Shown here piece by piece: positions 3,342 through 36,809 of a stretch of 40,000 bases of DNA (its first letter is position 1; each line of letters opens with the position of its first letter). The stretch spans positions 1,304,758-1,344,757 of the forward strand of contig NZ_LNTB01000001.1 in NCBI RefSeq assembly GCF_001462395.1. The letters are read 5' to 3'. This DNA comes from Pyrodictium occultum (GTDB lineage Archaea; Thermoproteota; Thermoprotei_A; Sulfolobales; Pyrodictiaceae). Under the pieces are notes generated by a model. That model did not search any database, was not told the origin of the DNA, and saw only the letters and a list, made by a program, of their open reading frames with translations. The position numbers were made by a program, and so were the translations under genes.

Positions 3342-5198
3342 ATGGTGACGCTGGTGGCCCTCGCCAGGACGCTCCTGCTGCTCGCCATCCTGGCCGCGGC
3401 GCTCTATCTCCTCAAGCCCGTCCACGCCGCGGAGGCCGGGTCTAGCACCCCCCAGCCCTCGTGGAGCGTCATCCTGGGATACAGCGTCACCAGGCTAGCC
3501 TGGAACACCTCTAGCGACCACTTGTTAGTGGGCACTAGCGGCGGCGCCGTCCTGCTCGACCGGTCCGGCCACAAGGTGTGGGGGCTGCTGCCCAAGGAGC
3601 CGGTCTACGACGTGGCGTTCTCCCCCGACGGGAGGCTTGTGGCAGTGGCCGCTGGGAGGATATGGCACTACGTATACGTGCTCGACGCTGCCACCGGGAG
3701 GGAGGCCGCGAGGATATTCAGCATATGGGGCGACCTGGCGAGCGTCTGCTGGGTCTCCACCGGCTTCCTCGTCGCGGGGGAGTCGGGGAGGCCGAGGCTC
3801 CACCTCTACAAGCTGGTCCAGGGGCCGACGGGGTCCCTGGAGCCGCGCAGCCTGGCGGTGATAAGCCTAGGGGATGGGGACTATGGCGGCGTGGCCTCCA
3901 TAGCCTGCATACCCGGGAAGGAGCAGGTGGTTGTAGGCATGCGCAACGGCTACATAGCCCTCGTCTCCCTCATTTCCGGCAAGCCCGTCTGGGTGTCGCC
4001 CAGCCTCGGGGGGCAGCTGGCCGGCATGGCTCTCGGCGGCGATGTTGTGGCGGCAGCCGTCATCGACAAGAGCCACGGTGTCTCAAGGCTCTACCTGCTA
4101 TCGCTCGCTAGAGGGGAGGTTATGGCCTCCTATAGCGTCGAGACGCTTATCACCTCGATAGCGGTCACGGGCAACTACCTCATAGCGGGTGATCTAGGCG
4201 GCGACCTCTACCTCTTCCAGTACGGCCGAGGAGGCCTCGAGCTGGTAGACATAGACAGGGTCTCGCTTGCCCCGATAACAGCTATCGCGGTCAGCCCCGA
4301 CGGCTCCCAGCTGGCCATAGGCGTGGAGAAGGGTGTCGTAGCCTCGTTCAACGCCGCCGACTTCATCTACGAGAGGCTTGCCAAGATAGTGTCTGGGGTG
4401 AGCACCGTCTACACCCTGATCAGCGTAGCCATTGATGATAGGCCCGTGGTGTTGTTCAGGACTGTCATAGACCTGCCGTCCGTGCTTTCGCTGAACGTGG
4501 GCAGCTATAATGTATCCTTCGACGCGGTCCTGGAGCAGGTTAGGCTGCCCTGCAACGTCGTGCTTGAGGTGAACGTGGTGGAGCTGAAGGAAATGGACAC
4601 CAATATGACTGTAGCAACTATGCTGCTCGACAAGCCTCTAGAGATATCCTGCCACGGCATAAAATACGGCTACCAGGAGTCTAATGTGAGCGTCCATGGC
4701 CGGGCGGTGCTAGCCCTCTCCGAGACCAGTAGCCTGCGGCTCCTCGGCGACAGGGAGCATGTACTGGTTAGGCTGCAGGCAGCGCCCTACATCGCGGTGT
4801 ACTACGGGGGCCGGCCCGGCAGGCTGGCCTCCGAGATAAGGGTGGATAACCTGGTCCCGGCCACAGTCATACTAGCCAAGTACTTCAGCCGCATCCAGGG
4901 CCTAGTGGCGCCGGCCCCCGGAGCAGCTACAAGGACGGTAACAACCACTGTCACCACTACCGTGACGAGGACGGTGACCACGACCCCGGCTGGAGCCTGC
5001 GGGGGTGCAGCCACGCCTCCGGCCAGCTCGGCCTCCAGGGGGCCCGCGGCCAGCGCGGCCACCAGCGCCGCCGGGGGAGCCTGGTCCGGCAGCAGGCTGG
5101 CCGCGGCAGGGATCGTGGCGGCCCTGACGGCTATAGGCCTTCTCATGCTCGTAGCGGGTCATAGGAGGAGGGGCGGCAGGAGAGGCGGCGCCGCTTAG
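3342..5198 (+). CDS. Surface-anchored beta-propeller (WD40/PQQ-like repeat) protein with a Thr/Val stalk and a C-terminal TM anchor
   Basis: N-terminal signal/TM (LLLLAILAAALYLLKPVHA). Repeated propeller-type blades (VYDVAFSPDGRLVAVAAG, ITAIAVSPDGSQLAIGVEKG, LIAGDLGGDLYLF). Linker TRTVTTTVTTTVTRTVTTTP. C-terminal TM IVAALTAIGLLMLVAG followed by the basic tail HRRRGGRRGG. Confidence 0.75.
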   Translation: MVTLVALARTLLLLAILAAALYLLKPVHAAEAGSSTPQPSWSVILGYSVTRLAWNTSSDHLLVGTSGGAVLLDRSGHKVWGLLPKEPVYDVAFSPDGRLVAVAAGRIWHYVYVLDAATGREAARIFSIWGDLASVCWVSTGFLVAGESGRPRLHLYKLVQGPTGSLEPRSLAVISLGDGDYGGVASIACIPGKEQVVVGMRNGYIALVSLISGKPVWVSPSLGGQLAGMALGGDVVAAAVIDKSHGVSRLYLLSLARGEVMASYSVETLITSIAVTGNYLIAGDLGGDLYLFQYGRGGLELVDIDRVSLAPITAIAVSPDGSQLAIGVEKGVVASFNAADFIYERLAKIVSGVSTVYTLISVAIDDRPVVLFRTVIDLPSVLSLNVGSYNVSFDAVLEQVRLPCNVVLEVNVVELKEMDTNMTVATMLLDKPLEISCHGIKYGYQESNVSVHGRAVLALSETSSLRLLGDREHVLVRLQAAPYIAVYYGGRPGRLASEIRVDNLVPATVILAKYFSRIQGLVAPAPGAATRTVTTTVTTTVTRTVTTTPAGACGGAATPPASSASRGPAASAATSAAGGAWSGSRLAAAGIVAALTAIGLLMLVAGHRRRGGRRGGAA

Positions 5199-5346
5199 GC
5201 TTTTCGGAGGCCGGTCCGTGTCCGCCCCTACATTCCTCTACGCGCCTGGCAGCGCCATGGCTCGCTGCGGCGGCCCCGCGCCATGGGCGACGCGTATTTA
5301 GTGTCGGCACGGCCCTGGAGGGATTGAGAGGGCGGGGTTATAGACC

Positions 5347-6132
5347 TTGGCCCCTGTTAAGAGGAGCGCGGTGCTCGACGTAGCCGCCCCCTGCGACCGG
5401 GTTATACGGCTGCTATCCTCCCGCGACCCCTCCTCCTTCCTGGCGGGCGCGGCCAGGCTCAGCGGCCAGGGAGAGAAGCGCGGCGTGAAGGTGCTTACCT
5501 TCGCCTCCGCCAGGTACGGCAGCCTGCGGGTGGAGGCCGAGGAGAGGGTCGAGGCTGACCGCCTGGAGCTGCTCCTCCGGGGCGACCTCCACGGCTCCGT
5601 GCGGGTTGTCGGGGTCAGCAAGGGCAGCGGGTGCCGCCTCTACCTCGAGGCTGAGGGGGAGGGTAAGCTCGTCGAGGAGTACGGCGGTGACGCCCTCTCG
5701 CGCGTAATAAACCGTATAATGGTCACGCTGGTCAGCGTGTTCCCCGCCACTCTGCAGCCCCGGGTCTCCGGGGGCAGGCTCGGGGACTACTTCATCGAGC
5801 TCCTGGAGCTCATAAACCTCGCCCAGGGGGGTAGCGCGAGGATCCAGGGCAGGCTACGCAGTATAGCAGTGGACCTCAGCCGCGGGGTCGTGATAAACTC
5901 GGAGGGGCTGGGCGAGGAGGAGGCTAGCACGATAGCGAGGGCCCTCTCCGACGCCTACTCTAGGCTTGTTGAGGCCCTGGGTATTCTCGGTGATGGCGAG
6001 GTTTCACGCCTCGTAGTATCGGGTGACAAAAGCCTTATAGTGGCCAATGTAGCGGGTAAAATATCTGTGGCCACCGTGCTGCAGCAGGGTGGCGGAGAGG
6101 AGGCCGGCGCCTCCGGCTCCGGGGCGTCGTAG
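5347..6132 (+). CDS. Two-domain protein: SRPBCC-like N-terminus plus a Roadblock/LC7 (MglB-like) C-terminal domain
   Basis: The C-terminal 100 aa (SIAVDLSRGVVINSEGLGEEEASTIARALSDAYSRLVEALGILGDGEVSRLVVSGDKSLIVANVAGKISVATVL) fit the Roadblock/LC7 pattern. The N-terminal part (VKRSAVLDVAAPCDRVIRLL...) resembles SRPBCC/CoxG-type domains. The start codon (TTG 5347) is uncertain. Confidence 0.55.
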   Translation: MAPVKRSAVLDVAAPCDRVIRLLSSRDPSSFLAGAARLSGQGEKRGVKVLTFASARYGSLRVEAEERVEADRLELLLRGDLHGSVRVVGVSKGSGCRLYLEAEGEGKLVEEYGGDALSRVINRIMVTLVSVFPATLQPRVSGGRLGDYFIELLELINLAQGGSARIQGRLRSIAVDLSRGVVINSEGLGEEEASTIARALSDAYSRLVEALGILGDGEVSRLVVSGDKSLIVANVAGKISVATVLQQGGGEEAGASGSGAS

Positions 6133-6138
6133 AGGCTG

Positions 6139-6966
6139 ATGCCCCAGTCTCCCAGCCGCCCTTGGAGGCTGATGAGCTTGTCAAAGCCGTTTGTTATGAG
6201 GCTGCTGCGTAGGCGCCCGCTCAGCTACACTGTCCTAGTCCTCTTCATACTAGACCGCTCCCTGAGCATGATGGAGCCCAAGACCTATGACTACCGCGGC
6301 AAGTGGTTCCACCTAGTGGACCTGGTTGAGGCTCTCCTACGCAGGCTGGGCCGCAGCAGGATGGCCCCCGCCTTCCGGGTCGGCTTCGTCTGGTTCAGCG
6401 ACGACGTCGAGGTGGTTGAGTGGAACGGCGAGGTCTACTTCCCCGTCGCCCCGAGGAACGTGGCGCTCGACGTGTTCCGTAAGAGTGCGGAGAGGAACCG
6501 GCCCTACGGCATGACCGCCATGGCTGACGCGCTGGAGGCGGCGGCGTCCGTGGTCGAGCGGTATGTGGACCAGTTGACGCTGCCGCCGGAGAAGTATGGG
6601 ACTCTCTTCCTCTTCACCGACGGCAGGGAGACCAGGAGAACGGTGGACGACGTGGTGGTGGCAGCGGAGAAGATAACCATGGAGCTGGCGGAGAGGATGA
6701 AGAAGCTCAACGAGAGGAACCGTATAGGCCTCGCAACCATAGCCCTCGGCCAGGACGCCGACAGGGAGACGCTGAGGGATATAGCGAGCTTCCTGCGTGA
6801 GGCGCAGCGCCGTGTCCTCGAGGACCGGGGGCTCCTGGACCTGGTGGACCCGCCCTACCACGAGAAGATGTTCATAGACGCGCCCGCCGATGACCGTATA
6901 ACGCGCGAGTGGGAGGAGGCTGTGAGGAGGTTCGTGGAGAGGCTGAGCGAGACGGCTACGGTCTAG
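6139..6966 (+). CDS. von Willebrand factor type A (vWA) domain protein
   Basis: MIDAS motif DRSLSM (DxSxS) after the beta-strand VLVLFIL. A downstream TAMADAL and LFLFTDGRET match vWA motif order. The start may be ATG 6172. Confidence 0.8.
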   Translation: MPQSPSRPWRLMSLSKPFVMRLLRRRPLSYTVLVLFILDRSLSMMEPKTYDYRGKWFHLVDLVEALLRRLGRSRMAPAFRVGFVWFSDDVEVVEWNGEVYFPVAPRNVALDVFRKSAERNRPYGMTAMADALEAAASVVERYVDQLTLPPEKYGTLFLFTDGRETRRTVDDVVVAAEKITMELAERMKKLNERNRIGLATIALGQDADRETLRDIASFLREAQRRVLEDRGLLDLVDPPYHEKMFIDAPADDRITREWEEAVRRFVERLSETATV

Positions 6967-6976
6967 GCCTTCTAGG

Positions 6977-8032
6977 GTGTCAGCCCCCATGGCTAGGCTC
7001 AGCCTGGTTTTCCACAGCGGCTTCGTGGTGTCCACTGATAGCGATGAGTGGGAGCTGCTCGATAGCGGCGGCGAGGCCGACATATACCGGGCTAGGCTCC
7101 GGGGCGGGCAGAGCTACATAGTCAAGCTGTATACGCCCAAGTACACGGGGCTCGCCCGGCCGGTGGAGCGCATCGCTGAGATGCTTAGGAGGCTCACTAG
7201 GCTCCGCAGGAGGTGTGGGGGGTCGATACCCGAGAGCCTCTGGGCCCGCGGCCTCCCCGTAGCCGTGGGAGCCCTCGAGGACAGGGCCGTGCTAGTGTTC
7301 CGGGAGGTGGAGGACTTCACTACGGTATCCGAGCTGGTGAACAACCCGGAGCTGCTGGGGGAGTACCTCGAGAGGCACAGCCTGGAGGAGAGGAGGCGGT
7401 TCGCCCGCGAGGTGCTGCGGGGCCTCGCCTGCCTAGACGCGGCCGACATAGTCCATGTCGACGCTACGACGCCCAACGCGGCCTACGGCAGGGTCGGGGA
7501 GACTAGAGGGGTATTCCTCTACGACTACGAGACGGCGGGCATTATAGGCTCCGAGGACTACCCCCTCACCGTTCTCCCCGCCCGCGACGCCAACCTCCTC
7601 CCCGTGGAGGTGCTGGCCGAGGCCGGGGTTGAGATACAGCCCCCGGACCCGGGCGAGCTGCCCATACCCCTCCAGCCCTCCCGGCTCCCCAGGCCCATCC
7701 TCTCCTGGATAGCCTGGACCCCGACCTGGTACGGCCTGCAGCTGGTGGCGCTGGTCTACAGCGGCCTCAGTCCCTTCCACGGCCTCCCCGTGCTGAGCAG
7801 CAGCTACTGGCTAGAGATAGTGGAGGCCGAGGCCGCGCAGGGCTACCCGGGCGGCTGGCCCCCGCTGAGCATGGTGGACCAGGGCTACCTGGACCAGACC
7901 GAGTACCTGGAGCTGAGCAAGCTGTGGAGAAGCCTTGGCGAGGACGTGGTGGAGGCGATGTACCACGTCTTCATCGTCGACCCGGGCGAGCGGCGGGGCA
8001 TGCCGAGCTACCCACTCTCGTCAATATTCTAG
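6977..8032 (+). CDS. Eukaryotic-like protein kinase-fold protein (putative Ser/Thr kinase)
   Basis: Gly-rich loop plus Lys strand (LDSGGEADIYRARLRGGQSYIVKLY). Catalytic-loop-like IVHVDATTPNAAY (HxD...N). DFG-equivalent LYDYETAG. It begins 11 nt after the vWA stop, so the two are probably co-transcribed. Confidence 0.7.
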   Translation: MSAPMARLSLVFHSGFVVSTDSDEWELLDSGGEADIYRARLRGGQSYIVKLYTPKYTGLARPVERIAEMLRRLTRLRRRCGGSIPESLWARGLPVAVGALEDRAVLVFREVEDFTTVSELVNNPELLGEYLERHSLEERRRFAREVLRGLACLDAADIVHVDATTPNAAYGRVGETRGVFLYDYETAGIIGSEDYPLTVLPARDANLLPVEVLAEAGVEIQPPDPGELPIPLQPSRLPRPILSWIAWTPTWYGLQLVALVYSGLSPFHGLPVLSSSYWLEIVEAEAAQGYPGGWPPLSMVDQGYLDQTEYLELSKLWRSLGEDVVEAMYHVFIVDPGERRGMPSYPLSSIF

Positions 8033-8174
8033 CCCCCGGGCGGCCCCGCAGCCTCTCATGGAGCTGCCGCCCCGCCCGCCAGGGGTAGAGATTAGTAGGA
8101 CGGACCACAGTCAAGCCCATACTGTGGAGGGAGTCCCGCCCCGGCTGCCAATGAGGGAGGGCTGGCCGGTATAG

Positions 8175-8471
8175 GGGTGCCCTAGAGCCTTGAACCACCG
8201 CTCAGCAGCCCTCGCCCTGGCCGCCCTCGCCGCCTCGGCTGCCGCCCTCGCCCTGCTAGCAGGCTTCGCCACCACCCAGAGCCCGCTGAGCAGCTTCTAC
8301 GCGGTGGGCTGCGCGCAGGCGCCCAACGAGCCCATAAGCCTCCAGCAGCTCGGCAGCATAACCATAGCCCCAGCCTCCGGGGCCGAGGGCTCTCTCGAGG
8401 AGCCCGAGTGGCTCAAGATAACAAGGCACAGTGATGTCGACTATGTGAAGCTGGAGCTGAGCCTGGAGAAC
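8175..8471. repeat. 5' homology block of large paralog A, an inverted copy of 36513-36809
   Basis: By eye, both 297-bp blocks start 15 nt upstream of the TTG start (gggtgccctagagccTTGaaccacc...) and are near-identical, apart from a 42-bp fully diverged sub-block (8367-8408) and a few point differences. Confidence 0.85.
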
Positions 8472-9350
8472 GCGGATCAGCTGCGCCGGCTCCTAGACTA
8501 CCTAAGCATAGAGGTTAGGGAGGCATACCAGGTCTTCGAGGGCAACGTGACGACGGATCAGCCGTACTGTAAGAGGGCTCCTCAGGATGAGTGGCCGCAC
8601 CTCTCCTGGGCCATAGACGGCCACGGGAAGGATATAGCCGAGAAGCTTAAGCACGTCCTGCGGGGCCACGTGCAGAAGGGAATAGACGTCGATGCCGCGG
8701 TGCAGGACATACTCAGCAGAGTCTCCTACGCCACCATAACCCTAGCCTACCGCAACTACACCTACAACGGCACCCTATACCTGGCCCCGGGCAACGGCAC
8801 AGCAATCAACGAGACCCTCCACGAGATAGCCCGCCACCTGGTCCGGGGAAGCGGGATAGTGGTCCACACGCCCTACGCTGACGGTAGAGGCTTCCACCAC
8901 GTAGTGATTGAGGCCGACACGCAGCCCCCAACACTGTTCTTCGACTCCGCGGATTACGGCATAATAGTGGGCAACGGTACGAGCGGCCACAGGCCCGCGT
9001 CCGCTCTCAACTTCACCCTGCGGCTAGACTTCTACGATAGCTCCGGCAACTGGCTGTTCGCCATATGGTGGGACACGATCTACTACAGCTATGCCGGCGG
9101 CCGCTTTAACAACTGGGCCTCGTACGAGTATCTCAGCGTCGCCCGGCCGGTCCTCAAGCTGGGCAACGTTAGGGCCGTGCTCAGCCTGGGTAAGCCCAGC
9201 GCAGTGGTCGCTGTGGACGGGGACTCCTGGCTCTACGATGGAGGCCGGGCGGCGGTCCTGGGCGCCCGGGTGTACTACGAGGCTAGGGAGGGCGTGCTCT
9301 TCGACAGCGTGCCCCTGGTGATCAACGCCAGGGTGGTTGAGACGGGCTAG
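8190..9350 (+). CDS. Secreted TasA-like family protein, large paralog A (subunit fold with a roughly 250-aa inserted domain)
   Basis: Leader MNHRSAALALAALAASAAALALLAGFA followed by TTQSPLSSFYAVG. The N- and C-terminal segments are collinear with the short paralog 11282-11812 (KLELSLENADQL... / LSLGKPSAVVAVD...VLGARVYYEAREGVLFDSVPLVINARVVETG). Many N-x-S/T sequons fall in the inserted region. Confidence 0.8.
   Translation: MNHRSAALALAALAASAAALALLAGFATTQSPLSSFYAVGCAQAPNEPISLQQLGSITIAPASGAEGSLEEPEWLKITRHSDVDYVKLELSLENADQLRRLLDYLSIEVREAYQVFEGNVTTDQPYCKRAPQDEWPHLSWAIDGHGKDIAEKLKHVLRGHVQKGIDVDAAVQDILSRVSYATITLAYRNYTYNGTLYLAPGNGTAINETLHEIARHLVRGSGIVVHTPYADGRGFHHVVIEADTQPPTLFFDSADYGIIVGNGTSGHRPASALNFTLRLDFYDSSGNWLFAIWWDTIYYSYAGGRFNNWASYEYLSVARPVLKLGNVRAVLSLGKPSAVVAVDGDSWLYDGGRAAVLGARVYYEAREGVLFDSVPLVINARVVETG
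9225..9350. repeat. 3' homology block of paralog A, an inverted copy of 35526-35651
   Basis: 126 bp (tcctggctctacgatggaggccgg...gagacgggctag) read identical in both copies up to the stop codon. The flanks diverge immediately after the stop. Confidence 0.85.
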
Positions 9351-9362
9351 CCTCCTGGGCGC

Positions 9363-9857
9363 CTAGCCTCTCTCCACCCCCGCGTCCAGGGTCTCCGTCC
9401 TCGCCGGCCTGAGAATGCATCCACGCAGAAGCTCCGGGAGCTTCTCGAGGACCACCCGCGCCCCGGGGGTTAGGGGCAGCTGGAGGGCCTCCCGGTAGGG
9501 GAAGAACCTGGCATCCGCGGCGTCGCTCCCGCCCCGGGGCTCGCCGCCCCGGTACCTCATCAGCACGTCCATTATGACGTAGTGCTCGGGGCCCACGGGG
9601 CCCATGGCCAGCAGCTCGTGGATATGCACCACCCCCAGGGGCTCTGCGTCCACCCCGGTCTCCTCCATGAGCTCCCTCCGGGCCGCCTCCAGCACGGTCT
9701 CCCCGGGCTCCAGGTGGCCCCCGGGGAAGCTCCAGAGCCCAGGGAAGGGCGGGTAGCGGCGCTTCACGAGGAGCACCCTGAGCCCCGCCCCCTGCCCGAG
9801 GGCCACTATCGCGCCCACGCCCACCACTGGGCCGTGGAGCCCACCCCTCCTGGACAA
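9363..9857 (-). CDS. Nudix hydrolase
   Basis: Complete Nudix box [24 protein letters not shown] (Gx5Ex7REUxEExGU). Confidence 0.85.
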
Positions 9858-10241: not shown

Positions 10242-11165
10242 GTGTGGGGGTGCCATTTGCCCGTCCTGCGGGTCAGGGCTGCGGGCCTAGAGCTGGAGCA
10301 CCCGGTTATGAATGCAAGCGGCATCCTGGGCTCCAGGCCTGAGGCGCTGGAGAGGCTCGCGCGCGCCGGCTCCGCGGCGCTGGTCACGAAGTCCTTCACC
10401 CGCGAGCCGCGGAGCGGCTACCCGACGCCGATAGCCGTGCCCATCCCCCAGGGCCTGCTCAACGCCGTGGGGCTCTCGAACCCGGGGCTCGAGGCGCTCC
10501 CAGGGCTCCTGGAGAGGATCCGGGGGCTGGGCAAGCCGGTGATCGTCAGCATAGCTGGCTCCACCCCGGAGGAGTTCGCCGAGATAGCGGCCGCTGCCGA
10601 GGAGGCGGGCGCGGCGGCGGTGGAGCTGAACCTCAGCTGCCCCCACGCGAGGGGAAGGGGCCTCGAGATAGGCATGGACCCCGTCGCGGTCAGGGAGGTG
10701 GCCGGCGCCGCCGCCTCCACGGTGACCATACCGGTGCTCGCCAAGCTCGGCGTGGTGGATAGGCTCGTGGAGGTTGCCGGCAAGGCGCTCGAGGCAGGGG
10801 CGAGGGGCCTGGTGCTCATAAACACCATACGGGCCATGGCTATCGACGTCTACGCCATGAAGCCCGTCCTGGGTCACGGCGTGGGCGGGCTCTCGGGCCC
10901 CGCCATCCACCCCGTGGCGGTGCGCGCGGTCTACGAGGTCTACCGGGAGTACAGGACCGACATAATAGGGGTGGGCGGGGTCGAGGACTGGCGCACAGCG
11001 GCGGAGATGATCCTAGCCGGCGCCCGGGCGGTACAGGTTGGCACCGCGGTAATAACCAGAGGCGAGACAGTCATAAGCGAGATAGTACAAGGGCTCCAGA
11101 AGTACCTCCAGGAAGTAGGCGCCACGAGCATCCAAGACGTTGTGGGAGCAGCCCACAAAAACTAG
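10242..11165 (+). CDS. pyrD: Dihydroorotate dehydrogenase (class 1 catalytic subunit)
   Basis: Motifs LELEHPVMNASGILG, LVTKSFT, NAVGLSNPG, ELNLSCPH, LSGPAIHP and IGVGGV, in the order typical of class 1 DHODH. Confidence 0.9.
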   Translation: MWGCHLPVLRVRAAGLELEHPVMNASGILGSRPEALERLARAGSAALVTKSFTREPRSGYPTPIAVPIPQGLLNAVGLSNPGLEALPGLLERIRGLGKPVIVSIAGSTPEEFAEIAAAAEEAGAAAVELNLSCPHARGRGLEIGMDPVAVREVAGAAASTVTIPVLAKLGVVDRLVEVAGKALEAGARGLVLINTIRAMAIDVYAMKPVLGHGVGGLSGPAIHPVAVRAVYEVYREYRTDIIGVGGVEDWRTAAEMILAGARAVQVGTAVITRGETVISEIVQGLQKYLQEVGATSIQDVVGAAHKN

Positions 11166-11242
11166 CACAGCAAAAAGAAGAGCAAGCATAACAGGCATAT
11201 TAACACGCGTAGCATATTACCAGAATGGGTCATGATTAGATA

Positions 11243-11252
11243 GTTTTTATTT
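11243..11252 (+). promoter_or_regulatory. Strong TATA-box-like element upstream of the short TasA-like subunit gene
   Basis: gtttttattt lies within a markedly A/T-rich intergenic region (11166-11281), 30-39 nt upstream of GTG 11282. Confidence 0.55.
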
Positions 11253-11281
11253 CCCCGAAGTCGCCCTCATTTACATGACCC

Positions 11282-11812
11282 GTGAAGGGTCTGGTGAGGC
11301 GTATGAGGTACACGAGCCTGGCTCTAGCCGGCCTCGTCGCCTCGGCTGCCGCCCTCGCCCTGCTAGCAGGCTTCGCCACCACCCAGAGCCCGCTGAGCAG
11401 CTTCTACGCGGTGGGTGGCGCGCAGGCGCCCAACGAGCCCGTCACCATAACCAGCAACCTCAGCGGCATATCGCCCGCCGCCGGCGCGCAGGGCGATGCC
11501 GACATAGGCACTGTGACGGTGAAGGCCGGCAGCAACGTGAACGTTGTGAAGATAAGGGCCACCCTCGCCAACGCCGAGCAGCTGAAGAAGTACTTCGACT
11601 ACCTGGAGATAACCATAGCCAACGACAACGGCGAGGCTAAGGCCATGGTGAGCCTGGAGAAGCCCAGCGCCGTCATAGTGCTCGACCAGAACGACATAGG
11701 CGGTGACAACCAGGCGACGCTGAGCTTCCACGCCTACTACGAGGTCAAGGAGGGCATGCTGTTCGACAGCATGCCGGTGATCTTCAACTTCCAGGTGCTC
11801 AGCACCAGCTAA
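11282..11812 (+). CDS. Short secreted TasA-like family protein (paralog B), candidate major filament subunit
   Basis: 176-aa ORF (alternative start ATG 11303). Leader ...LALAGLVASAAALALLAGFA, then TTQSPLSSFYAVGGAQAPNEP. No Cys, beta-rich appearance, and a hydrophobic C-terminal strand MLFDSMPVIFNFQVLSTS. Confidence 0.8.
   Translation: MKGLVRRMRYTSLALAGLVASAAALALLAGFATTQSPLSSFYAVGGAQAPNEPVTITSNLSGISPAAGAQGDADIGTVTVKAGSNVNVVKIRATLANAEQLKKYFDYLEITIANDNGEAKAMVSLEKPSAVIVLDQNDIGGDNQATLSFHAYYEVKEGMLFDSMPVIFNFQVLSTS
11338..11440. repeat. About 103-bp block shared with paralogs A (8231-8333) and C (reverse strand)
   Basis: cgcctcggctgccgccctcgccctgctagcaggcttcgccaccacccagagcccgctgagcagcttctacgcggtggg...gcgcaggcgcccaacgagccc is identical to copy A except for 2 positions. 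Confidence 0.8.
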
Positions 11813-12113
11813 GGCGCGGGGGCGGCAGCCTCCAGAAGCCAAACCCCATCCTTTTACCCCCTACACTTGGCTCCTAACATTCCTCGCCACTCTCACCTCC
11901 CTTGTGGAGACTCCTGGCCTCTAATCCACATCTCCGTCTTGCCGGACTTCTCCCGAGCTTCCTCGTTTAATGCATATAAATGTGTTAGAGGTCTTTCAAG
12001 CCGTTTCTTATCTACCGGGTTGTCGTGGCGGATGCCGGGCTGGTCGGGGGCCTGGCCGTAGTGCTGAAATATCCCCGGTCCGCTCCATCGCGTTAGTACT
12101 GGGGCCTGCAGAC

Positions 12114-12190
12114 GGGCCCGTAGCTCAGCCCGGCGGAGCGCCCGGCTGATAACCGGGAGGTCGGGGGTTCGAATCCCCCCGGGCCCACCA
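12114..12190 (+). tRNA. tRNA-Ile (anticodon GAU), with encoded CCA
   Basis: Manual cloverleaf: acceptor GGGCCCG/CGGGCCC, D stem GCUC/GAGC, anticodon stem CCCGG/CCGGG with loop CUGAUAA (GAT at 12148-12150), T arm GGGGG-UUCGAAU-CCCCC, discriminator A, then CCA at 12188-12190. Confidence 0.9.
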
Positions 12191-12253
12191 CCTCCTCCGG
12201 CCCCGGAGGGACGGGGCCTGCTGCTCTTCCATCTGGTTCTCCTGCCGGCTCCC

Positions 12254-12283
12254 TCTTTAGGGGCTGGTTCTTTAGGGGCTGGT
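12254..12283. repeat. Perfect 2 x 15-bp tandem duplication (tctttaggggctggt)
   Basis: Read directly at 12254-12268 and 12269-12283, in the spacer between the tRNA and the PGI/PMI gene. Confidence 0.9.
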
Positions 12284-12318
12284 GTCTTCCTTCCCCGCGG
12301 CGCTGTTCTAAGGGGTGC

Positions 12319-13323
12319 GTGGGCGGGATGGCCGGGTTCTACGAGTATTATCTTGGCTGGGCTGGGCCTGCCCGGCGCGCCTATTCCTCTGGGGTGGCGC
12401 TGCAGCTGCCCCAGGGCTATGCCAGGGCCGGGGAGGTGGTGGTCTGTGGCATGGGTGGTAGCGGTGCTGCTGGCGACTATCTCGCCGCCCTGTCGGCCCG
12501 GTATGGCGGGCTCCCGGTCTACGTTGTGAAGTCGGCTGAGCCGCCGGCGTGGGTGCGGGGGAGCCTTGTCTATGCGGTGAGCTTCTCGGGTAACACTAGG
12601 GAGACGCTGAGCTGTGCCTCGCGCGCCTATAGGCTCGGCGGCCTGGTAGTCGCGGTCACCACTGGTGGGAGGCTGGCCTCCTGGGCACGGAGCGTGGGGG
12701 CGCCGGTGGCGCTGGTGGAGGAGGCTCCTGCCCCGCGGGCGGGGTGGCCGCAGCTCTTCTACACGCTGCTGGGCAGCCTGAAGGCGGCTGGGTTGATCCA
12801 GGTGCCCGAGAGCCATGTGGAGGAGTCTCTGCAGCTTCTCGGGGAGCGTGAGAGGGCTGAGGCCGAGGCCGGGGAGCTTGTGGCGTGGCTCCGGGAGAGC
12901 CGGGGGAGGCTGGCGGTTCTGGCGCCAGAGCCCTACTACCCGGTGGCGGTGAGGGCTGTGAGCGAGCTCGCCGAGAATGCTAAGACCTCCGCTGTGGCTA
13001 TGCAGGTGCCGGAGGCGGGGCATAACCTTCTCGAGGCGCTGGCGAGGGATGGTGACTCCAGGCTACTCCTCATAGACCCTGGGGAGGAGCCGTGGAGCAC
13101 TCTCCTCCATGAATTCGCGGGCCTCGCGAGGCCCGCCAGCATACATGTGGCTAGGCTGCAGGGCGGGAGCCCGCTCTCCAGGATGGTGTGGGGCACCTGG
13201 CTGGCGGGCCTGGCCTCTGTCCGCCTAGCGCTGGAGGAGGGCCTGGAGCCGGAGCCAGTGAAGACTATCAAGGCTTTCCGCCGCGTGGTGGAGGAGACTA
13301 GCGGCTGGGATGCCCACAGCTAG
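12319..13323 (+). CDS. Bifunctional phosphoglucose/phosphomannose isomerase (SIS-domain PGI/PMI family)
   Basis: SIS motifs VVCGMGGSGAAGDYL and VSFSGNTRETL. Size and layout match the crenarchaeal PGI/PMI family. The start may be ATG 12328. Confidence 0.8.
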   Translation: MGGMAGFYEYYLGWAGPARRAYSSGVALQLPQGYARAGEVVVCGMGGSGAAGDYLAALSARYGGLPVYVVKSAEPPAWVRGSLVYAVSFSGNTRETLSCASRAYRLGGLVVAVTTGGRLASWARSVGAPVALVEEAPAPRAGWPQLFYTLLGSLKAAGLIQVPESHVEESLQLLGERERAEAEAGELVAWLRESRGRLAVLAPEPYYPVAVRAVSELAENAKTSAVAMQVPEAGHNLLEALARDGDSRLLLIDPGEEPWSTLLHEFAGLARPASIHVARLQGGSPLSRMVWGTWLAGLASVRLALEEGLEPEPVKTIKAFRRVVEETSGWDAHS

Positions 13324-13365
13324 CCCCAGGCCGCCGCGCCCTCCAGGCCCCCGGGATTGCAAGGG

Positions 13366-13379
13366 GTAATTTTTAATAG
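13366..13379 (+). promoter_or_regulatory. TATA-box-like element for the leaderless 13403 gene
   Basis: gtaatttttaatag is centred about 27-30 nt upstream of ATG 13403. Confidence 0.5.
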
Positions 13380-13402
13380 AGCTTGGCCGGCCCGTCCCCG
13401 GC

Positions 13403-13669
13403 ATGGAGGTGGGTGCTATGGCTAGCGAGTACCTCTCCAAGCTGAAGGACCTGATAAAGCCCAAGGCCCAGGAGAAGGGGATAAAGGTGATGGTTGTTGG
13501 CTCGACCATGAAGCTCGTCAAGGACGGCAACACCGTGATGAACATCGCCGACAAGGGCGAGATAGTTGAGCTGAGCTTCAAGGGCAAGAAGTACACCTAC
13601 GACAAGTGGTACACCAAGCCCGAGCACCTCGCGGCGACGATAACCAGGACCCTCGACGTCCAGCTCTAG
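13403..13669 (+). CDS. Small Lys-rich hypothetical protein (88 aa)
   Basis: ORF track. It has a strong upstream TATA and Lys-rich composition (KLKDLIKPKAQEKGIKV..., SFKGKKYTYDKWYTK) that differs from neighbouring genes. No family recognised. Confidence 0.6.
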   Translation: MEVGAMASEYLSKLKDLIKPKAQEKGIKVMVVGSTMKLVKDGNTVMNIADKGEIVELSFKGKKYTYDKWYTKPEHLAATITRTLDVQL

Positions 13670-13755
13670 GATGGGGCCTTGGGCCGCCCTCTGGGCGGAG
13701 CAGCACCGGCCGGTTTTTAGCCCCCGGGGGCAGGGGAGGGCAGAGGACCCTAGGG

Positions 13756-15441
13756 CTACGAGCCCCCGCCGCCCTGGTCCTCGTAGCAGTAGTGCTTCCG
13801 GGCCTCCTCCAGGCTTATCCTCCCCTCGGCTAGGTCGCGCTCGACCAGCTCCCTGGGCCTGGCGCAGGGGTCGCCATAGCCCCCGCCGCCTGGGGTCTCG
13901 ATGTAGATAGTGTCGCCCCTACTCAGCACCAGGGTTGTCTTAGAGGCCAGCTCCAGCCTCTCGCCGCTCCCCCTCACGAGGAGGGCGCGGAAGGGGGCGC
14001 CGGGGCCGCCGCCCTCCAGGCCCCAGGGCCTGGTCCTCGAGCGCTCCGCATACACTGTCGCCACCACCCCATCCTCGAGGACGGTTATCGCGCGTACAAC
14101 CCCCAGGCCGCCCCTCCAGCGGCCCGGGCCCCCGCTCCCTGGCCTCAGCTCGTACCTCCTGAAGCGCAGTGGATACTCCGCCTCCGCCACCTCCACCGGG
14201 GTGTTGAGGGTGTTGGTCATGTTGGTCTGGACCCCGTCGACCCCGTCGCAGCAGGGCCTAGCGCCAGCGCCGCAGCCTATGGTTTCGTAGAACACCCAGC
14301 CTCTCCCGGCGAGTATCAGGTTGCTCATCGTCCCGCAGCTTGCCGCCGGCACCCTGCCCGGGAACGCCTCGGCGAGGGCCCGGAGCACGACGTCCGCTAT
14401 CCTCTGGGAGGTCTCCACGTTGCCCCCGCCGACCGGGGCCGGCGGCCTGGGGTTCACCAGGGTGCCCTCGGGCGCGTGGATCTCGGCGACGCGGTAGAAG
14501 CCGCTGTTCATGGGCATATCGGGGTCGAGCACGGTCTTCAGGGCGTAGGTTGTAGCTGCCACTGTGACCCCGTAGACGGCGTTGAGGGGCTCCTCGACCT
14601 GGGGGCTGGTGCCGGAGAAGTCTACCCTCACCCTTGACCTGGTGACCTCGAGCCGGGCCCGTATCCGGAGCAGCCTGCCGGAGGCGGTCTCGAGGCCGTC
14701 CTCCGCCTCGTAGACTCCCCCGCCGTGCTCCTCCACGAGGCGGGCCAGCACGCTGCGGGTGTAGCGCTCAGTATAGCCGAGTATCTCCCTCCAGGCCTCC
14801 AGCAGCGTGCCGGTGCCGTAGCGGCCCGCGAGCTCCCTTATCCTCTCGGCGCCCCTCCTCAGCGCGGCCAGTTGTGCCATCGCGTCGCCCCTCACCCTCC
14901 CCGGCTCCCTGACGTTGGCCTCCAGGAGCCGGAGCACGTCCCAGCGGACACGGCCCGCCTCCACCAGCTTGACCGGCGGGACCACGAGGCCCTCGTCCCT
15001 GAGGCTCCTGGCCCCGGGGCCTATGCCCCCGGGCACGCAGCCCCCCACGTCCACGTAGTGGGCCTTGCACGCGACGTAGGCCGCCAGCCTCCCGCCGGCG
15101 TGGACGGGCGCCAGCATCATGACGTCGTTGATGTGAGTGCCGGTGAGGTACGGGTCGTTGGACACCACCACGTCCCCGGGGCCGGGCTCGACGCCGAGCC
15201 TCTCCAGCTCCCCGAGCACCGCCCTGGCGCCGACGGGCATGCTGCCCAGGTGGACGGGTATGTGCTCCGCCTGCGCCACCAGCTCGCCCTCGGGGCTGAG
15301 GACCGCGCAGGAGAAGTCCAGCCGGTCCCGTATATTCGGGCTCATTGACGCGTTGCGGAGCACAACCCCCATCTCCTCGGCGGCCGCTATAGCGGCGTGC
15401 CTCACCACCTCCACGGTAACCCGGTCGACCATCCCCGCCAC
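13756..15441 (-). CDS. hyuB: Hydantoinase B / 5-oxoprolinase family protein
   Basis: N-terminus VTVEVVRHAAIAAAEEMGVVLRNASMSPNIRDRLDFSCAVLSPEGELVAQAEHIPVHLGSM is typical of the Hydantoinase_B family. It starts 5 nt after the hyuA stop. Confidence 0.9.
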   Translation of the reverse strand: MAGMVDRVTVEVVRHAAIAAAEEMGVVLRNASMSPNIRDRLDFSCAVLSPEGELVAQAEHIPVHLGSMPVGARAVLGELERLGVEPGPGDVVVSNDPYLTGTHINDVMMLAPVHAGGRLAAYVACKAHYVDVGGCVPGGIGPGARSLRDEGLVVPPVKLVEAGRVRWDVLRLLEANVREPGRVRGDAMAQLAALRRGAERIRELAGRYGTGTLLEAWREILGYTERYTRSVLARLVEEHGGGVYEAEDGLETASGRLLRIRARLEVTRSRVRVDFSGTSPQVEEPLNAVYGVTVAATTYALKTVLDPDMPMNSGFYRVAEIHAPEGTLVNPRPPAPVGGGNVETSQRIADVVLRALAEAFPGRVPAASCGTMSNLILAGRGWVFYETIGCGAGARPCCDGVDGVQTNMTNTLNTPVEVAEAEYPLRFRRYELRPGSGGPGRWRGGLGVVRAITVLEDGVVATVYAERSRTRPWGLEGGGPGAPFRALLVRGSGERLELASKTTLVLSRGDTIYIETPGGGGYGDPCARPRELVERDLAEGRISLEEARKHYCYEDQGGGGS

Positions 15442-15446
15442 CCCTC

Positions 15447-16883
15447 CTAGACCCTCTCGATGTGGAGCGCGTAGAGCCCATCCACCCGGGCAGCGTGGCC
15501 CGGCGGCACCAGGACGGTGGAGTCCTCCTCCTCGACCACCGCGGGGCCCGTGATCTCGGCCCCAGGCCTCAGGAGGGGCCTCCAGTACACCGGGGCCTCA
15601 ACCCAGCCCGCCTCCTCGAAGTAGACGCGCCTCCGCCCCCGCGGCTCTGGCCGGTGGGGCCTCGGCTCCCCCTGCGGCAGCCTGGGCTTCCCCGTCCTCC
15701 CGTAGGCGGTGAGCCGGGCCGCGACTATGAAGACCGGCGCCTCCCGGAGCCTGTAGCCGTACCGGGCCTCGTGGAGCCGGTGGAACTCCTCCACCGCCTC
15801 GCCCAGGCTGCCGCGGTAGGGGACCGTGATGCTGTAGGCCTGGCCCATGTACCTCATCTCCAGGCTCCTTGTCATCACTATCTTGTTGCCCGGCACGCCC
15901 TCCGCCCTGAGCATTGCCAGGGCCTTCTCCGCGAGGCTCTCGAACACCCTGTCGAGCTCCTCCTCGGAGACCTCGCCGGCGGCCCTCGCCACAGCCGCGT
16001 GGAGGTCGTGCCGGTAGTCGGTGAGCAGGAGCCCGAGGGCGGAGAAGACGCCGGGCATCGGCGGGACCACGACCCTCTCCATCCCCAGCTCCCCCGCCAG
16101 CTCAGCCGCGTGGAGGGGCCCGGCGCCCCCATAGGCGTAGAGGGTGAAGCGCCGGGGGTCGTAGCCCCTCTCCACGGTCACTATCCGGAGCGCCCTCGCC
16201 ATAATAGTGTTGGCTATCCTAACCACCGCCGCCGCTGCCTCGACCAGGTCCATGCCCAGCTTCTCCCCGAGCCCCGTGAGAGCCTCCAGCGCCAGGTCCC
16301 TGCGGAGCCGGAGGACGCCGCCGGCGAGGGCCTCGGGGAGCCTCCCGAGGACGAGCTGCGCGTCCGTAACCGTCGGCTCCCTCCCGCCCCGGCCGTAGCA
16401 GGCCGGCCCCGGGTCGGAGCCCGCGCTCACCGGGCCCACGCGGAGCGCGCCCCCCGCGTCGACCCAGGCGATGCTGCCCCCGCCCGCGCTGACCTCCACG
16501 AGGTCTATGAAGGGGTAGCGTACCGGGTACCCGGAGCCCCTCAGCTTCCTCCCCATGTGGGCCCTGCCGCCGACCTCGTACTCGCCCACCACGAGCGGCT
16601 CCCCGCCCACCACGGCGACAGCCTTCGCCGTGGTGCCGCCCATATCGAAGCCCACGGCGTGCTCGACCCCCATCAGCCTGGAGAAGTAGGCCGCCGCGAC
16701 CGCGCCGGCGGCGGGCCCGCTCTCGATGAACGCCGCGGGCCTCTCGACAGCCTGCTCGACCCCGGCCACCCCGCCGCTGCTCTGCATGACCAGGAGCGTC
16801 CCCCGGAACCCGCGGCGCCGCAGCTCCTCCAGGAGCCTGGCCAGGTAGCCGGAGAGCAGCGGCCGGAGCAGCGCGTTCACCAC
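15447..16883 (-). CDS. hyuA: Hydantoinase A / oxoprolinase family, C-terminal fragment (gene interrupted by a frameshift)
   Basis: Continues the Hydantoinase_A sequence (...VVNALLRPLL..., GFDMGGTTAK, SAGGGSIAWVD). The conserved REYERASTA immediately upstream is in this frame but lies before any start codon. Confidence 0.8.
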   Translation of the reverse strand: MVNALLRPLLSGYLARLLEELRRRGFRGTLLVMQSSGGVAGVEQAVERPAAFIESGPAAGAVAAAYFSRLMGVEHAVGFDMGGTTAKAVAVVGGEPLVVGEYEVGGRAHMGRKLRGSGYPVRYPFIDLVEVSAGGGSIAWVDAGGALRVGPVSAGSDPGPACYGRGGREPTVTDAQLVLGRLPEALAGGVLRLRRDLALEALTGLGEKLGMDLVEAAAAVVRIANTIMARALRIVTVERGYDPRRFTLYAYGGAGPLHAAELAGELGMERVVVPPMPGVFSALGLLLTDYRHDLHAAVARAAGEVSEEELDRVFESLAEKALAMLRAEGVPGNKIVMTRSLEMRYMGQAYSITVPYRGSLGEAVEEFHRLHEARYGYRLREAPVFIVAARLTAYGRTGKPRLPQGEPRPHRPEPRGRRRVYFEEAGWVEAPVYWRPLLRPGAEITGPAVVEEEDSTVLVPPGHAARVDGLYALHIERV

Positions 16884-17509
16884 AGCGGTGCTGGCCCTCT
16901 CGTACTCGCGGGCGCAGGGTCTACCTCATGGCTCGCCACCACCTCGGCGCCGGGGCACTCCTTTAGGATAATCCTCTTCGCCTCCTCCTCGTGCCCCGGG
17001 TTGGCGTAGCTATGGAGGAACGAGACGACGAACACCCTGGCTCGGCCGCACCACTCCCTCGCGATCCTCCTGACGGCCTCCCCGTCGAGGGGCTCTATCT
17101 CTTCCCCGCGGGGCCCTACCCGGCCCCTGACGGTCAGCCTCCGCTCCCTGGGCACGAGGGGCCTGGGCCGCTGGAAGAAGGGGTCGTAGAGGGTGGGGCG
17201 GGCCTGCCTGCCCAGCTCCAGCACGTCCCGGAAGCCTTCATTGGTCACGAGGACTGCCTCCGGCGGCTCCAGCCCCTCCTGGCCCAGGAACATGTTGGTG
17301 CCAAGGGTGGAGGCGTGGACTATGACCTCCACTGTGTCGAGGCTCCAGCCGAGCATCGCGAGGGCGTTCAGCACGCCCCTCCACGGCTCCCTCGGGGTGG
17401 TGAGGGTCTTGAGGCTCACAACCCTCCCCAACTCCTCGTCGAAGGCTACGAGGTCGGTGAAGGTGCCCCCGATGTCAACCCCTATCCTCCTCAAGGCCCG
17501 GGCCGGCAC
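16877..17509 (-). CDS. hyuA: Hydantoinase A / oxoprolinase family, N-terminal fragment
   Basis: IGVDIGGTFTDLVAF is the N-terminal ATPase motif of the Hydantoinase_A_N domain. The frame ends ...ASHEVDPAPASTRGPAPLW*, straight after the conserved SHEV. Confidence 0.8.
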   Translation of the reverse strand: MPARALRRIGVDIGGTFTDLVAFDEELGRVVSLKTLTTPREPWRGVLNALAMLGWSLDTVEVIVHASTLGTNMFLGQEGLEPPEAVLVTNEGFRDVLELGRQARPTLYDPFFQRPRPLVPRERRLTVRGRVGPRGEEIEPLDGEAVRRIAREWCGRARVFVVSFLHSYANPGHEEEAKRIILKECPGAEVVASHEVDPAPASTRGPAPLW

Positions 17510-17560
17510 CCCAGAGGGGCTGCGGCGCCGCCGGCCTAATACCAGGGCCCCCCGGGGGGC

Positions 17561-18148
17561 TTAGCCGGCGCGCGTCCTGGGCAGGGCACGGTAGCCCTCC
17601 ACAAGCCTCTGGGCGAAGGTCGTCCACGCTAGGACGGCTAGCAGGCTGTAGAGGTACACGGCCACCCCCACGCCCAGGGCGGCGTGGACCAGGAGCACGA
17701 GCAGCTGCGCCACCACCCGGTCGCTCCTCTCGAGGAGCCCCGTCCCCTCCATGCTCCCGCCCGCCAGCGACTCGTAGCGGGCGCGGGCGTAGCTGGTCAG
17801 GAGCGCCCCGGTGAGGAAGGCGAGCACCGCCCAGGCGGGGTAGCCCAGCTCCATGAAGCCGGCGGCGTACACCGTGTCCTCCACGCGGTCCAGGAGGCTG
17901 TCGAGGTAGGCCCCCCGCGGCCCCGCCTCGCCGCGCAGCCTTGCCACCGCGCCGTCGAGCGCGTCCAGGAGCCCGCTCACCGCGAGGAGGAGCACGGCGA
18001 GCAGGGGGCTCCCCGCGGCCGCGGCGGCGAGGTAGGCCAGGGAGGCAGCCAGGCCCAGCAGCGTGTAGACGTCACCCGGCAGCGAGGCCAGGGGCCTGGC
18101 CGCCGCCTCCACGAAGCCCTTTATCCTCCCACGTAGCCTGCCCATCAA
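17561..18148 (-). CDS. CDP-alcohol phosphatidyltransferase family protein (archaeal polar-lipid head-group synthase)
   Basis: Signature DALDGAVARLRGEAGPRGAYLDSLLDRVED (DGx2ARx8Gx3Dx3D) and multiple TM helices. Confidence 0.85.
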   Translation of the reverse strand: MMGRLRGRIKGFVEAAARPLASLPGDVYTLLGLAASLAYLAAAAAGSPLLAVLLLAVSGLLDALDGAVARLRGEAGPRGAYLDSLLDRVEDTVYAAGFMELGYPAWAVLAFLTGALLTSYARARYESLAGGSMEGTGLLERSDRVVAQLLVLLVHAALGVGVAVYLYSLLAVLAWTTFAQRLVEGYRALPRTRAG

Positions 18149-18166
18149 GGCTCCCGGCCGCCCCGG

Positions 18167-20999: not shown

Positions 21000-21113
21000 G
21001 GCTTATGCCCATCCCCGGCTTATCCTGGGCGGGGCCCTAGCTATATCCGCCCGGGGCCGCTGCCCGGGAAGGGGCTGCGGAGAGGTAGAAGGGGGAGGGG
21101 AGGCACGGAGCTG

Positions 21114-22301: not shown

Positions 22302-22339
22302 CCCCGGGGGCGCAGCCCGGGGGGAGGAGAAGGGAGGCG

Positions 22340-25041: not shown

Positions 25042-25152
25042 TATATAACAGCCACTATATAACCAGAGTTACAGGGCATCGGCAGCCCCCTTGGAGGGCT
25101 ACCCCTTTATCCGCCCAGCCGGGCCCTAGGGGCCAGCAGCGGGGACAGTGTA

Positions 25153-25713: not shown

Positions 25714-25866
25714 GGGGCCACGGGGCTGGATGGGTGCCCCGCAGCCCCCGCAGCGGTACACCTTGCACCGGGAACCCGGTCCTATATGGGGTGCTGGTTC
25801 CATAAGGCTACGATTATCACCAATATCGTCTATGACACTGTATGGCGGGGGTGGCTGGCGGCGGGT

Positions 25867-28432: not shown

Positions 28433-28459
28433 AGAGGGGCCGCGCCCCCCAGGCTGCAG

Positions 28460-29053: not shown

Positions 29054-29103
29054 ATGTCTCGGCAAACGCTAGAAACACTAATGCGGTAGGCTGGCGGGTA
29101 GGA

Positions 29104-29511: not shown

Positions 29512-29728
29512 GCAGAACCACCACTAATGCCGAGGATTATCAACTATAATGCCTAATATAACGGTAACGTGGCTGGGCCACGAAAAGCGTAGAGCAAACC
29601 CAGGGTTTATCCCCCGAGGATTCTGCGGGGAGAAGGGCTACCTAAACCCTGGATGGCTCTGCTCCTCCAGGCCCCCGGGTATCAACGATGATTTTTAGCG
29701 GGCTGACGCCCATAATTCTCTAGCGGAG

Positions 29729-36794: not shown

Positions 36795-36809
36795 GGCTCT
36801 AGGGCACCC
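36513..36809. repeat. 5' homology block of paralog C (inverted copy of 8175-8471)
   Basis: The reverse complement matches 8175-8471, including 15 nt upstream of the TTG start, with one 42-bp diverged sub-block. Confidence 0.85.

Follow-up and report, generated by a model that had tools for sequence, protein, structure and literature searches.

CF15_06965 of Pyrodictium occultum, an unannotated member of the CanA/CanX cannula family, and a possible signal peptidase-ATPase module linked to Can-like genes

What kind of structure, if any, is built from the short secreted protein encoded behind one of the most A/T-rich intergenic regions in a 40,000-nucleotide (nt) stretch of the Pyrodictium occultum genome (the window; positions are counted along it unless another locus is named)? 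The open reading frame (ORF) in question, 11282..11812 on the forward strand with its stop codon at 11810-11812, yields 176 amino acids (aa) from a GTG start and is 100% identical to P. occultum CF15_06965, labelled "hypothetical protein". An earlier reading, made from the sequence only, had proposed the product as the major subunit of an undescribed archaeal surface filament. We find that CF15_06965 is an unannotated member of the already described CanA/CanX family, and that the filament itself is already known: it is the Pyrodictium cannula, a ~25-nm hollow tube connecting the cells, solved by cryo-electron microscopy in 2023-2025 (7uii, 9h8b) and seen on P. occultum since the 1980s (PMC12518558).

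Family identity, fold and conserved motifs of CF15_06965

The sequence-only reading had named profile and structure searches as checks on its proposal. The sequence search of the PDB with phmmer puts CF15_06965 in the polymerising cannula family: the CanX structure (9h8b) is matched end to end over residues 1-169 (E = 4e-58, ~60% identity), followed by CanA (7uii, E = 7e-41, about 50% identity) and the Hyper2 cannula-like tube protein (9bab, E = 4e-15, ~33% identity). Pfam and NCBIfam scans of CF15_06965 and its three paralogues in the window returned nothing meaningful. For CF15_06965 itself there was zero match at E <= 10 in Pfam, hence none to Peptidase_M73 (PF12389, TasA/camelysin), and zero match of any kind at E <= 10 in NCBIfam, including its SipW-related models; the SipW-cognate signal model TIGR04088 presumably belongs to that library. 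The suggested TasA/SipW type of the leader is thus not supported as a mark of membership in that group; the leader is published as an ordinary Sec/signal peptidase I (SPase I) signal. The Can family is small (42 representative clusters among 1.84 billion proteins in a full HMMER scan with the family profile), which fits its published confinement to Pyrodictiaceae (PMC12518558), and metagenomes scanned with the Can alignment yielded no relative. Five cannula-like proteins have been counted in P. occultum by Foldseek (PMC12518558); matching them by count, we infer that they are the four encoded in the window and CF15_01655.

An AlphaFold2 single-chain model of CF15_06965, built on a 16-sequence alignment (15 homologues and the ORF), has a mean predicted local distance difference test (pLDDT) score of 76. 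Residues 1-42 are disordered (pLDDT <50), which matches the CanA monomer crystal, and the core is modelled with 10-residue block means mostly of 83-96 (68 at residues 41-50, 80 at residues 151-160). The Cys-free mature part of 144 residues had been read as β-rich with a hydrophobic strand at its C-terminal end; the model contains eight β-strands and one short helix, with residues 161-168 as the last strand. Foldseek searches of the PDB reported five matches at E <= 1e-3, all of them cannula structures (9h8b, 7uii, 9hdi, 9dlo and 9bab), with 9h8b as the best (E 2e-16, TM(target) 0.80) and 9bab at E 4e-10. The bundling-pilus protein AbpA (7ueg, rank 19), the Saci_0406 thread (7pnb, rank 30) and the chaperone-usher pilin FimG are matched weakly. 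The jelly-roll fold found by this structural check, together with the homology to CanX and CanA, supports the earlier view of a secreted filament subunit with a β-rich core. That CF15_06965 is a genuine gene, and no ORF arisen by chance from the high GC content of the genome, is shown by homologues at E = 1e-58 and by the confident model of its core.

Within the family, the closest described counterpart is CanX of P. abyssi AV2 (WP_338251948.1), the major subunit of ex vivo cannulae, which is of the same size class (149 vs 144 mature aa) and shares the jelly-roll, the donor-strand glycine and the Ca2+ loops; CF15_06965 is known here from its gene and model. CanA of P. abyssi TAG11 (7uii, 9dlo, 9hdi) has the same core fold, donor strand and Ca2+-responsive loops, but its surface bears two extended loops, of about 10 and about 30 residues, that are missing from both CF15_06965 and CanX. 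Hyper2, from a Hyperthermus metagenome-assembled genome (9bab/9bac, entered there as 'DUF1102 domain-containing protein'), likewise forms its polymers through donor-strand complementation and Ca2+, but differs in its low identity to CF15_06965, its 8-start tubes and its other helical symmetry.

The N-terminus of CF15_06965 comprises the leader MRYTSLALAGLVASAAALALLAGFA, with a hydrophobic core ending in A-G-F-A, and then the conserved stretch TTQSPLSSFYAVGGAQAPNEP, as had been described. The leader is near-invariant in the 15 homologues, and in the alignment the AGFA-TTQSPL junction is identical and falls where mature CanA and CanX start. Recombinant CanA in its mature form has M-TTQSPL as its first residues, and 149 residues are present in the ex vivo model of CanX, which equals the 174 of the precursor less a leader of 25. 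Signal peptidase I needs small residues at positions -3 and -1, and the A-G-F-A junction provides them; the leader is predicted to be cleaved after AGFA. The stretch that follows, TTQSPLSSFYAVGGAQAPNE, aligns to the strand A segment of CanA (donor-strand residues Tyr11-Ser20), so the conserved region that had been guessed to be the donor strand does correspond to that of CanA and CanX. In its motif S-F-Y-A-V-G-G-A-Q-A the residues F34, A36 and G38 do not vary among the 16 sequences, and the donor region thus retains an aromatic residue (F/Y) and the central glycine, G38, throughout the alignment. Two loops have counterparts at the axial Ca2+ sites of CanA: PAAGAQG is identical to the CanA loop 34-40, with A59-G64 invariant in 16/16 sequences, and EVKEGMLFDSMPV agrees with the CanA loop 161-173 (EAKEGMLFDSLPV) at 11/13 residues, E147, G151, L153, F154, D155 and P158 being invariant across the Can alignment. 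This comparison, made at the level of whole loops, shows both Ca2+ loops to be conserved.

These features suggest a mechanism modelled on the published CanA/CanX structures (PMC12518558). In the CanA monomer ~19 residues at the mature N-terminus lack order; in the filament they form strand A, and removal of ten of them abolishes assembly; the donor strand has to offer a central glycine as well as an aromatic residue to fill pocket P1, and the loops 34-40 and 161-173 bind Ca2+ at axial sites and control access to the acceptor groove (PMC12518558). By analogy, the CF15_06965 precursor would be exported via Sec and cut by SPase I after A-G-F-A, freeing the N-terminus TTQSPLSSFYAVGGAQ..., and the disordered N-terminal segment would act as the donor strand. 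In the extracellular medium, with Ca2+ at its seawater level and at high temperature, Ca2+ would bind the PAAGAQG and E-x-K-E-G-M-L-F-D-S-x-P-V loops and open the acceptor groove, so that the donor strand of one subunit could complete the jelly-roll of its axially adjacent neighbour; further Ca2+ sites would bridge lateral neighbours to give a rigid ~25-nm tube, with no chaperone or usher. Chaperone-free donor-strand polymerisation, and the link between TasA, archaeal bundling pili and cannulae that the sequence-only reading had invoked, are published for homologues 50-60% identical to CF15_06965 (PMC12518558). The polymerisation of CF15_06965 and the geometry of its tube are extrapolated from these relatives; altogether, we consider it very probable that it is a polymerising subunit of the cannula family.

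The start codon differs between databases: GenBank gives ATG 11303 (169 aa) and RefSeq GTG 11282 (176 aa). Since 13/15 homologues begin at the corresponding M/V-R/K-Y/P-T position and a Shine-Dalgarno-like GGTGAGG lies just upstream, ATG 11303 with a ~28-nt Shine-Dalgarno leader is more likely than a leaderless GTG 11282; the mature protein is identical from either. The canX gene of P. abyssi has a Shine-Dalgarno-like counterpart (GGAAGGTG) at a similar distance, and the layout of TATA box, leader and Shine-Dalgarno sequence is shared by the two genes. The upstream region is as A/T-rich as had been noticed: the GC content of the whole window is 0.67, and its lowest 60-nt value, 0.33, is found at 11193-11252 (tied for lowest). 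Within it stands the T-rich octamer TTTTTATT, which we take to be a putative promoter element of CF15_06965. The TATA-like box of the earlier reading is therefore retained, and is unique as an octamer, while the leaderless spacing attributed to it is doubtful given the Shine-Dalgarno-led ATG. A 137-bp spacer separates the ATG from the preceding gene (10242..11165), which, as read by eye from its sequence rather than by family scan, appears to encode a dihydroorotate dehydrogenase.

Positional orthology to canX and the question of the major subunit

In P. abyssi the canX locus (L003) consists, in order, of genes for a PKD-domain protein, a DUF2204 protein, a 146-aa membrane protein, signal peptidase I, an AAA ATPase, a 429-aa Can-like protein (Can429) and CanX, and continues downstream with a fragmented large Can-like gene, tRNA-Ile, a PGI-like gene, a gene for an 83-aa protein and the genes for hydantoinase B and A. 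In P. occultum the order 3' of CF15_06965 is tRNA-Ile, PGI-like gene, 88-aa protein and hydantoinase B/A, and the interval 11303-17509 matches the P. abyssi series canX-tRNA-Ile-PGI-83aa-HydB-HydA, with proteins 75-90% identical. Immediately 3' of CF15_06965 is the tRNA-Ile(GAU) gene (12114-12190, forward strand), whose P. abyssi equivalent likewise comes after the canX cluster. The genes that precede canX there are found again in the window at 25867-34492, as an inverted block. As judged from gene order, one inversion with a breakpoint between the 414-aa Can-like gene (Can414, CF15_07030) and CF15_06965 explains the layout. Seen from the P. abyssi locus, this single inversion (window 11243..25800) sets the canX orthologue with its tRNA-Ile, PGI and hydantoinase genes apart from the SPase-AAA-Can414-PKD block. 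Because of the shared gene order and the single inversion, CF15_06965 is, in terms of synteny, the positional orthologue of canX.

Several points weigh against the assignment of CF15_06965 as the counterpart of CanX in P. occultum cannulae. It is 60-62% identical to CanX vs 63-65% to other short P. abyssi paralogues and 66-67% to CF15_01655; since it is by sequence not specifically closest to CanX, it is gene order that carries the orthology. The CanX glycosylation site Asn51 (mature numbering) is not conserved in CF15_06965, which has N52-L-S (precursor numbering) as its sole N-x-S/T sequon instead. Finally, its expression and its assembly in cannulae are predictions.

The explanation that competes most seriously is that CF15_06965 belongs to the cannula family but is a minor or condition-specific subunit, with CF15_01655, or a mixture, as the major component. 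CF15_01655 (174 aa) is of the same size class and exhibits all the conserved motifs, and P. abyssi has many short Can paralogues, a sole one of which was found in ex vivo tubes. However, CF15_01655 is located among histidine-biosynthesis genes and not in the canX position, its upstream region is GC-rich without an evident TATA box, and it starts with GTG, while CF15_06965 is syntenic with canX. We regard this explanation as rather unlikely, and lean, with limited confidence, towards CF15_06965 rather than CF15_01655 as the predicted major cannula subunit of P. occultum. As regards the "major subunit" of the sequence-only reading, the size class of CanX, the canX position and the strongest promoter-like region among the paralogues speak for it, and the abundance that the term implies is plausible only. 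Still, CF15_06965 acquires a name and a mechanism, and it stands first among the candidates for the major cannula subunit of the organism on which the fibres were first seen, which should help annotation and the study of thermostable protein nanotubes.

The possibility that CF15_06965 has the Can fold and is secreted but has lost the ability to polymerise, e.g. as a capping or regulatory paralogue, appears very improbable. Paralogue families often hold non-assembling members, and the donor strand differs from that of CanX at several positions (AVGGAQAPN vs ATGTAQAVQ), but the residues reported as critical are all kept (the aromatic for P1, the central Gly, the small hydrophobic residues and both Ca2+ loops). 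Even less credit can be given to a filament or matrix distinct from the known archaeal appendages. The annotation as a hypothetical protein and the empty Pfam and NCBIfam scans would suit such a proposal, but the protein has 50-60% identity to, and the fold of, CanX and CanA, whose tubes are solved, in an organism on which cannulae are documented and which was counted as having five cannula-like proteins (PMC12518558).

A bundling pilus of the TasA/AbpX type, made of thin fibrils, is the least probable of the filament readings. TasA with SipW in Bacillus subtilis, AbpA/AbpX and Saci_0406 are, as is predicted of CF15_06965, Sec-exported jelly-roll proteins with an N-terminal donor strand and no chaperone, and the TasA superfamily has been linked to Can by HHsearch at 80-95% probability, at <20% identity (PMC12518558). 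Yet Peptidase_M73 is not matched, the cannula structures score at least 10 orders of magnitude better than the weak AbpA and Saci_0406 matches, a 25-nm tube with a lateral Ca2+ lattice differs from a thin fibre, and the AbpX-like gene of P. occultum is WP_058370724.1 (PMC12518558), which is not among the identified window proteins. The tie of CF15_06965 to TasA is at the superfamily level and not to the TasA/camelysin family proper. Two further candidates were rejected. In a class III (type IV pilin) signal, which the sequence-only reading had also set aside, a short, charged leader is cut off ahead of a hydrophobic segment that the mature protein retains; this does not agree with the hydrophobic core of CF15_06965, which precedes the cleavage junction and is missing from mature CanA/CanX. 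Chaperone-usher pilins (FimA, FimG, PapA) likewise use donor-strand complementation of an incomplete β-sandwich, but they come from another domain of life and another family; the likeness to FimG is weak, no periplasmic chaperone or usher gene is found among the scanned window ORFs, and CF15_06965 has a Ca2+ trigger, as predicted from its relatives, instead of a chaperone and usher.

Table 1. Sequence features of CF15_06965, its paralogues in the window and the Can-linked signal peptidase locus
Feature	Position	Strand	Basis
TATA-like T-rich octamer TTTTTATT in AT-rich intergenic region	11244..11251	+	sole exact copy in 40 kb
Shine-Dalgarno-like GGTGAGG, upstream of ATG 11303	11293..11299	+	sequence reading
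Predicted Sec/SPase I signal peptide, residues 1-25 (MRYTS...LLAGFA)	11303..11377	+	near-invariant in 15 homologues
N-terminal donor strand region TTQSPLSSFYAVGGAQAPNE	11378..11437	+	aligns to CanA strand A segment
Jelly-roll core of cannula subunit	11438..11809	+	AlphaFold2 and Foldseek
Sole N-x-S/T sequon, N52-L53-S54	11456..11464	+	sequence and alignment
PAAGAQG loop, residues 58-64, counterpart of CanA loop 34-40 (axial Ca2+ sites)	11474..11494	+	alignment
EVKEGMLFDSMPV loop, residues 147-159, counterpart of CanA loop 161-173	11741..11779	+	alignment
Can-like paralogue CF15_06945, 386 aa; Can jelly-roll split by ~210-aa insertion	8190..9350	+	Can hidden Markov model (HMM)
Can-like paralogue CF15_07030, 414 aa; complete Can domain, Thr-rich linker, Cys-rich C-terminal domain	25867..27111	-	Can HMM, E = 6e-32
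Can-like paralogue CF15_07065, 422 aa; same insertion architecture as CF15_06945	35526..36794	-	Can HMM
AAA/STAND-type ATPase; hydrophobic C-terminal segment that looks membrane-spanning	27284..28432	+	Pfam AAA_22, 3.8e-14
Archaeal signal peptidase I WP_058371154.1, candidate Can-leader processor	28472..29053	+	TIGR02228, 83.6 bits
SPase-AAA pair beside Can-like genes, window	27284..29053 with 25867..27111	+ with -	
SPase-AAA pair beside Can-like genes, L003 (P. abyssi)	6617..9844		
SPase-AAA pair beside Can-like genes, L006	7217..9704		
SPase-AAA pair beside Can-like genes, L008	8001..10979		

A signal peptidase and an ATPase beside Can-like genes

A published analysis described Can neighbourhoods as being without dedicated signal peptidases (PMC12518558). 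The inverted block of the window contains a gene for an archaeal signal peptidase I, WP_058371154.1, whose TIGR02228 score (Table 1) is well above the cut-off of that model (51.85) and whose S50, H103 and D122/D128 motifs are invariant. It is positioned directly downstream of the gene for the AAA/STAND-type ATPase, which in turn is transcribed divergently from the 414-aa Can-like gene. Both products are 71% identical to their P. abyssi orthologues, which are encoded immediately upstream of the Can429-canX pair. The peptidase gene is 16.7 kb from CF15_06965, vs 2.8 kb from canX in P. abyssi.

The profile analysis indicates that the Can-linked peptidase is a sharply separated clade of SPase I, with members scoring 250-308 bits vs <=117 bits in ~170 other SPase I ORFs. 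A Can-like ORF is found within ~3 kb of a peptidase of this clade in 4/5 independent loci (P. occultum, P. abyssi, L006 and L008/L009), and in the same 4/5 the ATPase is adjacent, with full-length orthologues adjoining the peptidase in P. abyssi, L006 and L008/L009. A metagenome scan with the peptidase alignment retrieved mostly distant SPases, taken as a negative control; no Can-like ORF was found in the ~158 loci with more distant SPase I genes. The scan of genome contigs with the same alignment returned L009, from the same organism as L008, as the sole close locus. A word-index search of the named matches for the clade gave none from P. delaneyi, Hyperthermus butylicus or Pyrolobus; P. delaneyi has been reported to be without CanX homologues (PMC12518558). 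Another TIGR02228 peptidase of P. abyssi adjoins abpX, and the Can-linked one may be either a dedicated enzyme or the general housekeeping SPase I in these species.

By comparison with the tapA-sipW-tasA operon, in which sipW is linked to tasA as this SPase I is to Can genes, we speculate that the distinct SPase I, the putatively membrane-anchored AAA/STAND ATPase and the two-domain Can-like protein (Can414/Can429) could constitute a conserved cannula-linked module dedicated to leader processing and possibly to nucleation or anchoring. We put this forward tentatively, as a possibility somewhat short of even chances. The linkage of the SPase-AAA pair to Can genes may be unreported, and it matters more than the identification of CF15_06965 itself: if the peptidase and the ATPase are dedicated factors, the view of cannula assembly as "chaperone-free, accessory-free" would need revising, and cannulae would fall in line with the TasA, AbpX and Tafi loci, each with a signal peptidase gene of its own.

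Two side observations concern this block. The region 28460..29600 is a compositional low point of the window, the peptidase gene having a GC content of 0.57 and a GC content at third codon positions (GC3) of 0.72 vs window norms of ~0.67 and ~0.87. The adjacent gene for a 135-aa membrane protein (29104..29511, reverse strand) has GC 0.51 and GC3 0.68; it matches no family, and a 40% identical orthologue occupies the same place in P. abyssi.

Larger Can-like paralogues and other genes of the window

The leader and N-terminal stretch of CF15_06965 recur, as had been noticed, in three other ORFs of the window, CF15_06945, CF15_07065 and, more diverged, CF15_07030. The sequence-only reading would have the larger paralogues as minor or adhesive subunits, which is a possibility. 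Larger Can-like proteins are known in P. abyssi, where they were searched for in native cannulae and not detected (PMC12518558). The Can HMM matches CF15_06945 in two pieces (HMM positions 2-111 and 113-175), and the insertions in the larger paralogues that interrupt the jelly-roll in this way are 210-260 residues long. The genes for CF15_07065 and CF15_06945 are 92% identical over their 5' 297 bp and 100% identical over their last 127 bp, which suggests, as far as can be judged from the alignment, gene conversion of the donor-strand and acceptor parts. The two form inverted copies ~26 kb apart (8175..8471 and 9224..9350 on the forward strand vs 36809..36513 and 35652..35526 on the reverse strand); the 297-bp segment takes in ~15 nt upstream of both genes, and the middle parts are weakly similar. 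Both genes appear to start at TTG. In P. abyssi L003 a large insertion-type Can-like gene downstream of canX (10674..12512) appears to have been called as three separate genes, with products of 115, 91 and 355 aa (PaREP1 being the label of the 355-aa one); it is either a pseudogene or affected by assembly frameshifts.

CF15_07030 is of a different type, and its sequence makes it a candidate tip, anchor or nucleator subunit. Its orthologues are P0078 of P. abyssi, encoded directly upstream of canX, and P0090. The Thr-rich linker is ~60 residues long, and the C-terminal domain has 10 Cys and a faint Can-like similarity.

Other genes near the Can-like ones are mentioned for completeness. The 1296-aa PKD-domain protein beside the peptidase block (30602..34492, reverse strand) is 67% identical to its P. 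abyssi counterpart and 44% identical to that of the metagenomic locus L007, and its gene is flanked by one for a PP2C-like phosphatase (34625..35470). An isoleucyl-tRNA synthetase is encoded at 36956..39826 (reverse strand), and its presence in the same window as tRNA-Ile is probably a coincidence. The ORF at 13370..13669 (forward strand) encodes an 88-aa protein that is 90% identical to its P. abyssi counterpart and matches no family; it is preceded by TTTTTAAT at true leaderless spacing, the box starting 33 nt before the ATG. Finally, a set of genes at 3342..8032 (forward strand), just upstream of the 386-aa Can-like gene, encodes a WD40 β-propeller protein (618 aa), a VWA-domain protein (275 aa) and two proteins without a family match (261 and 351 aa), possibly with a link to a surface structure.

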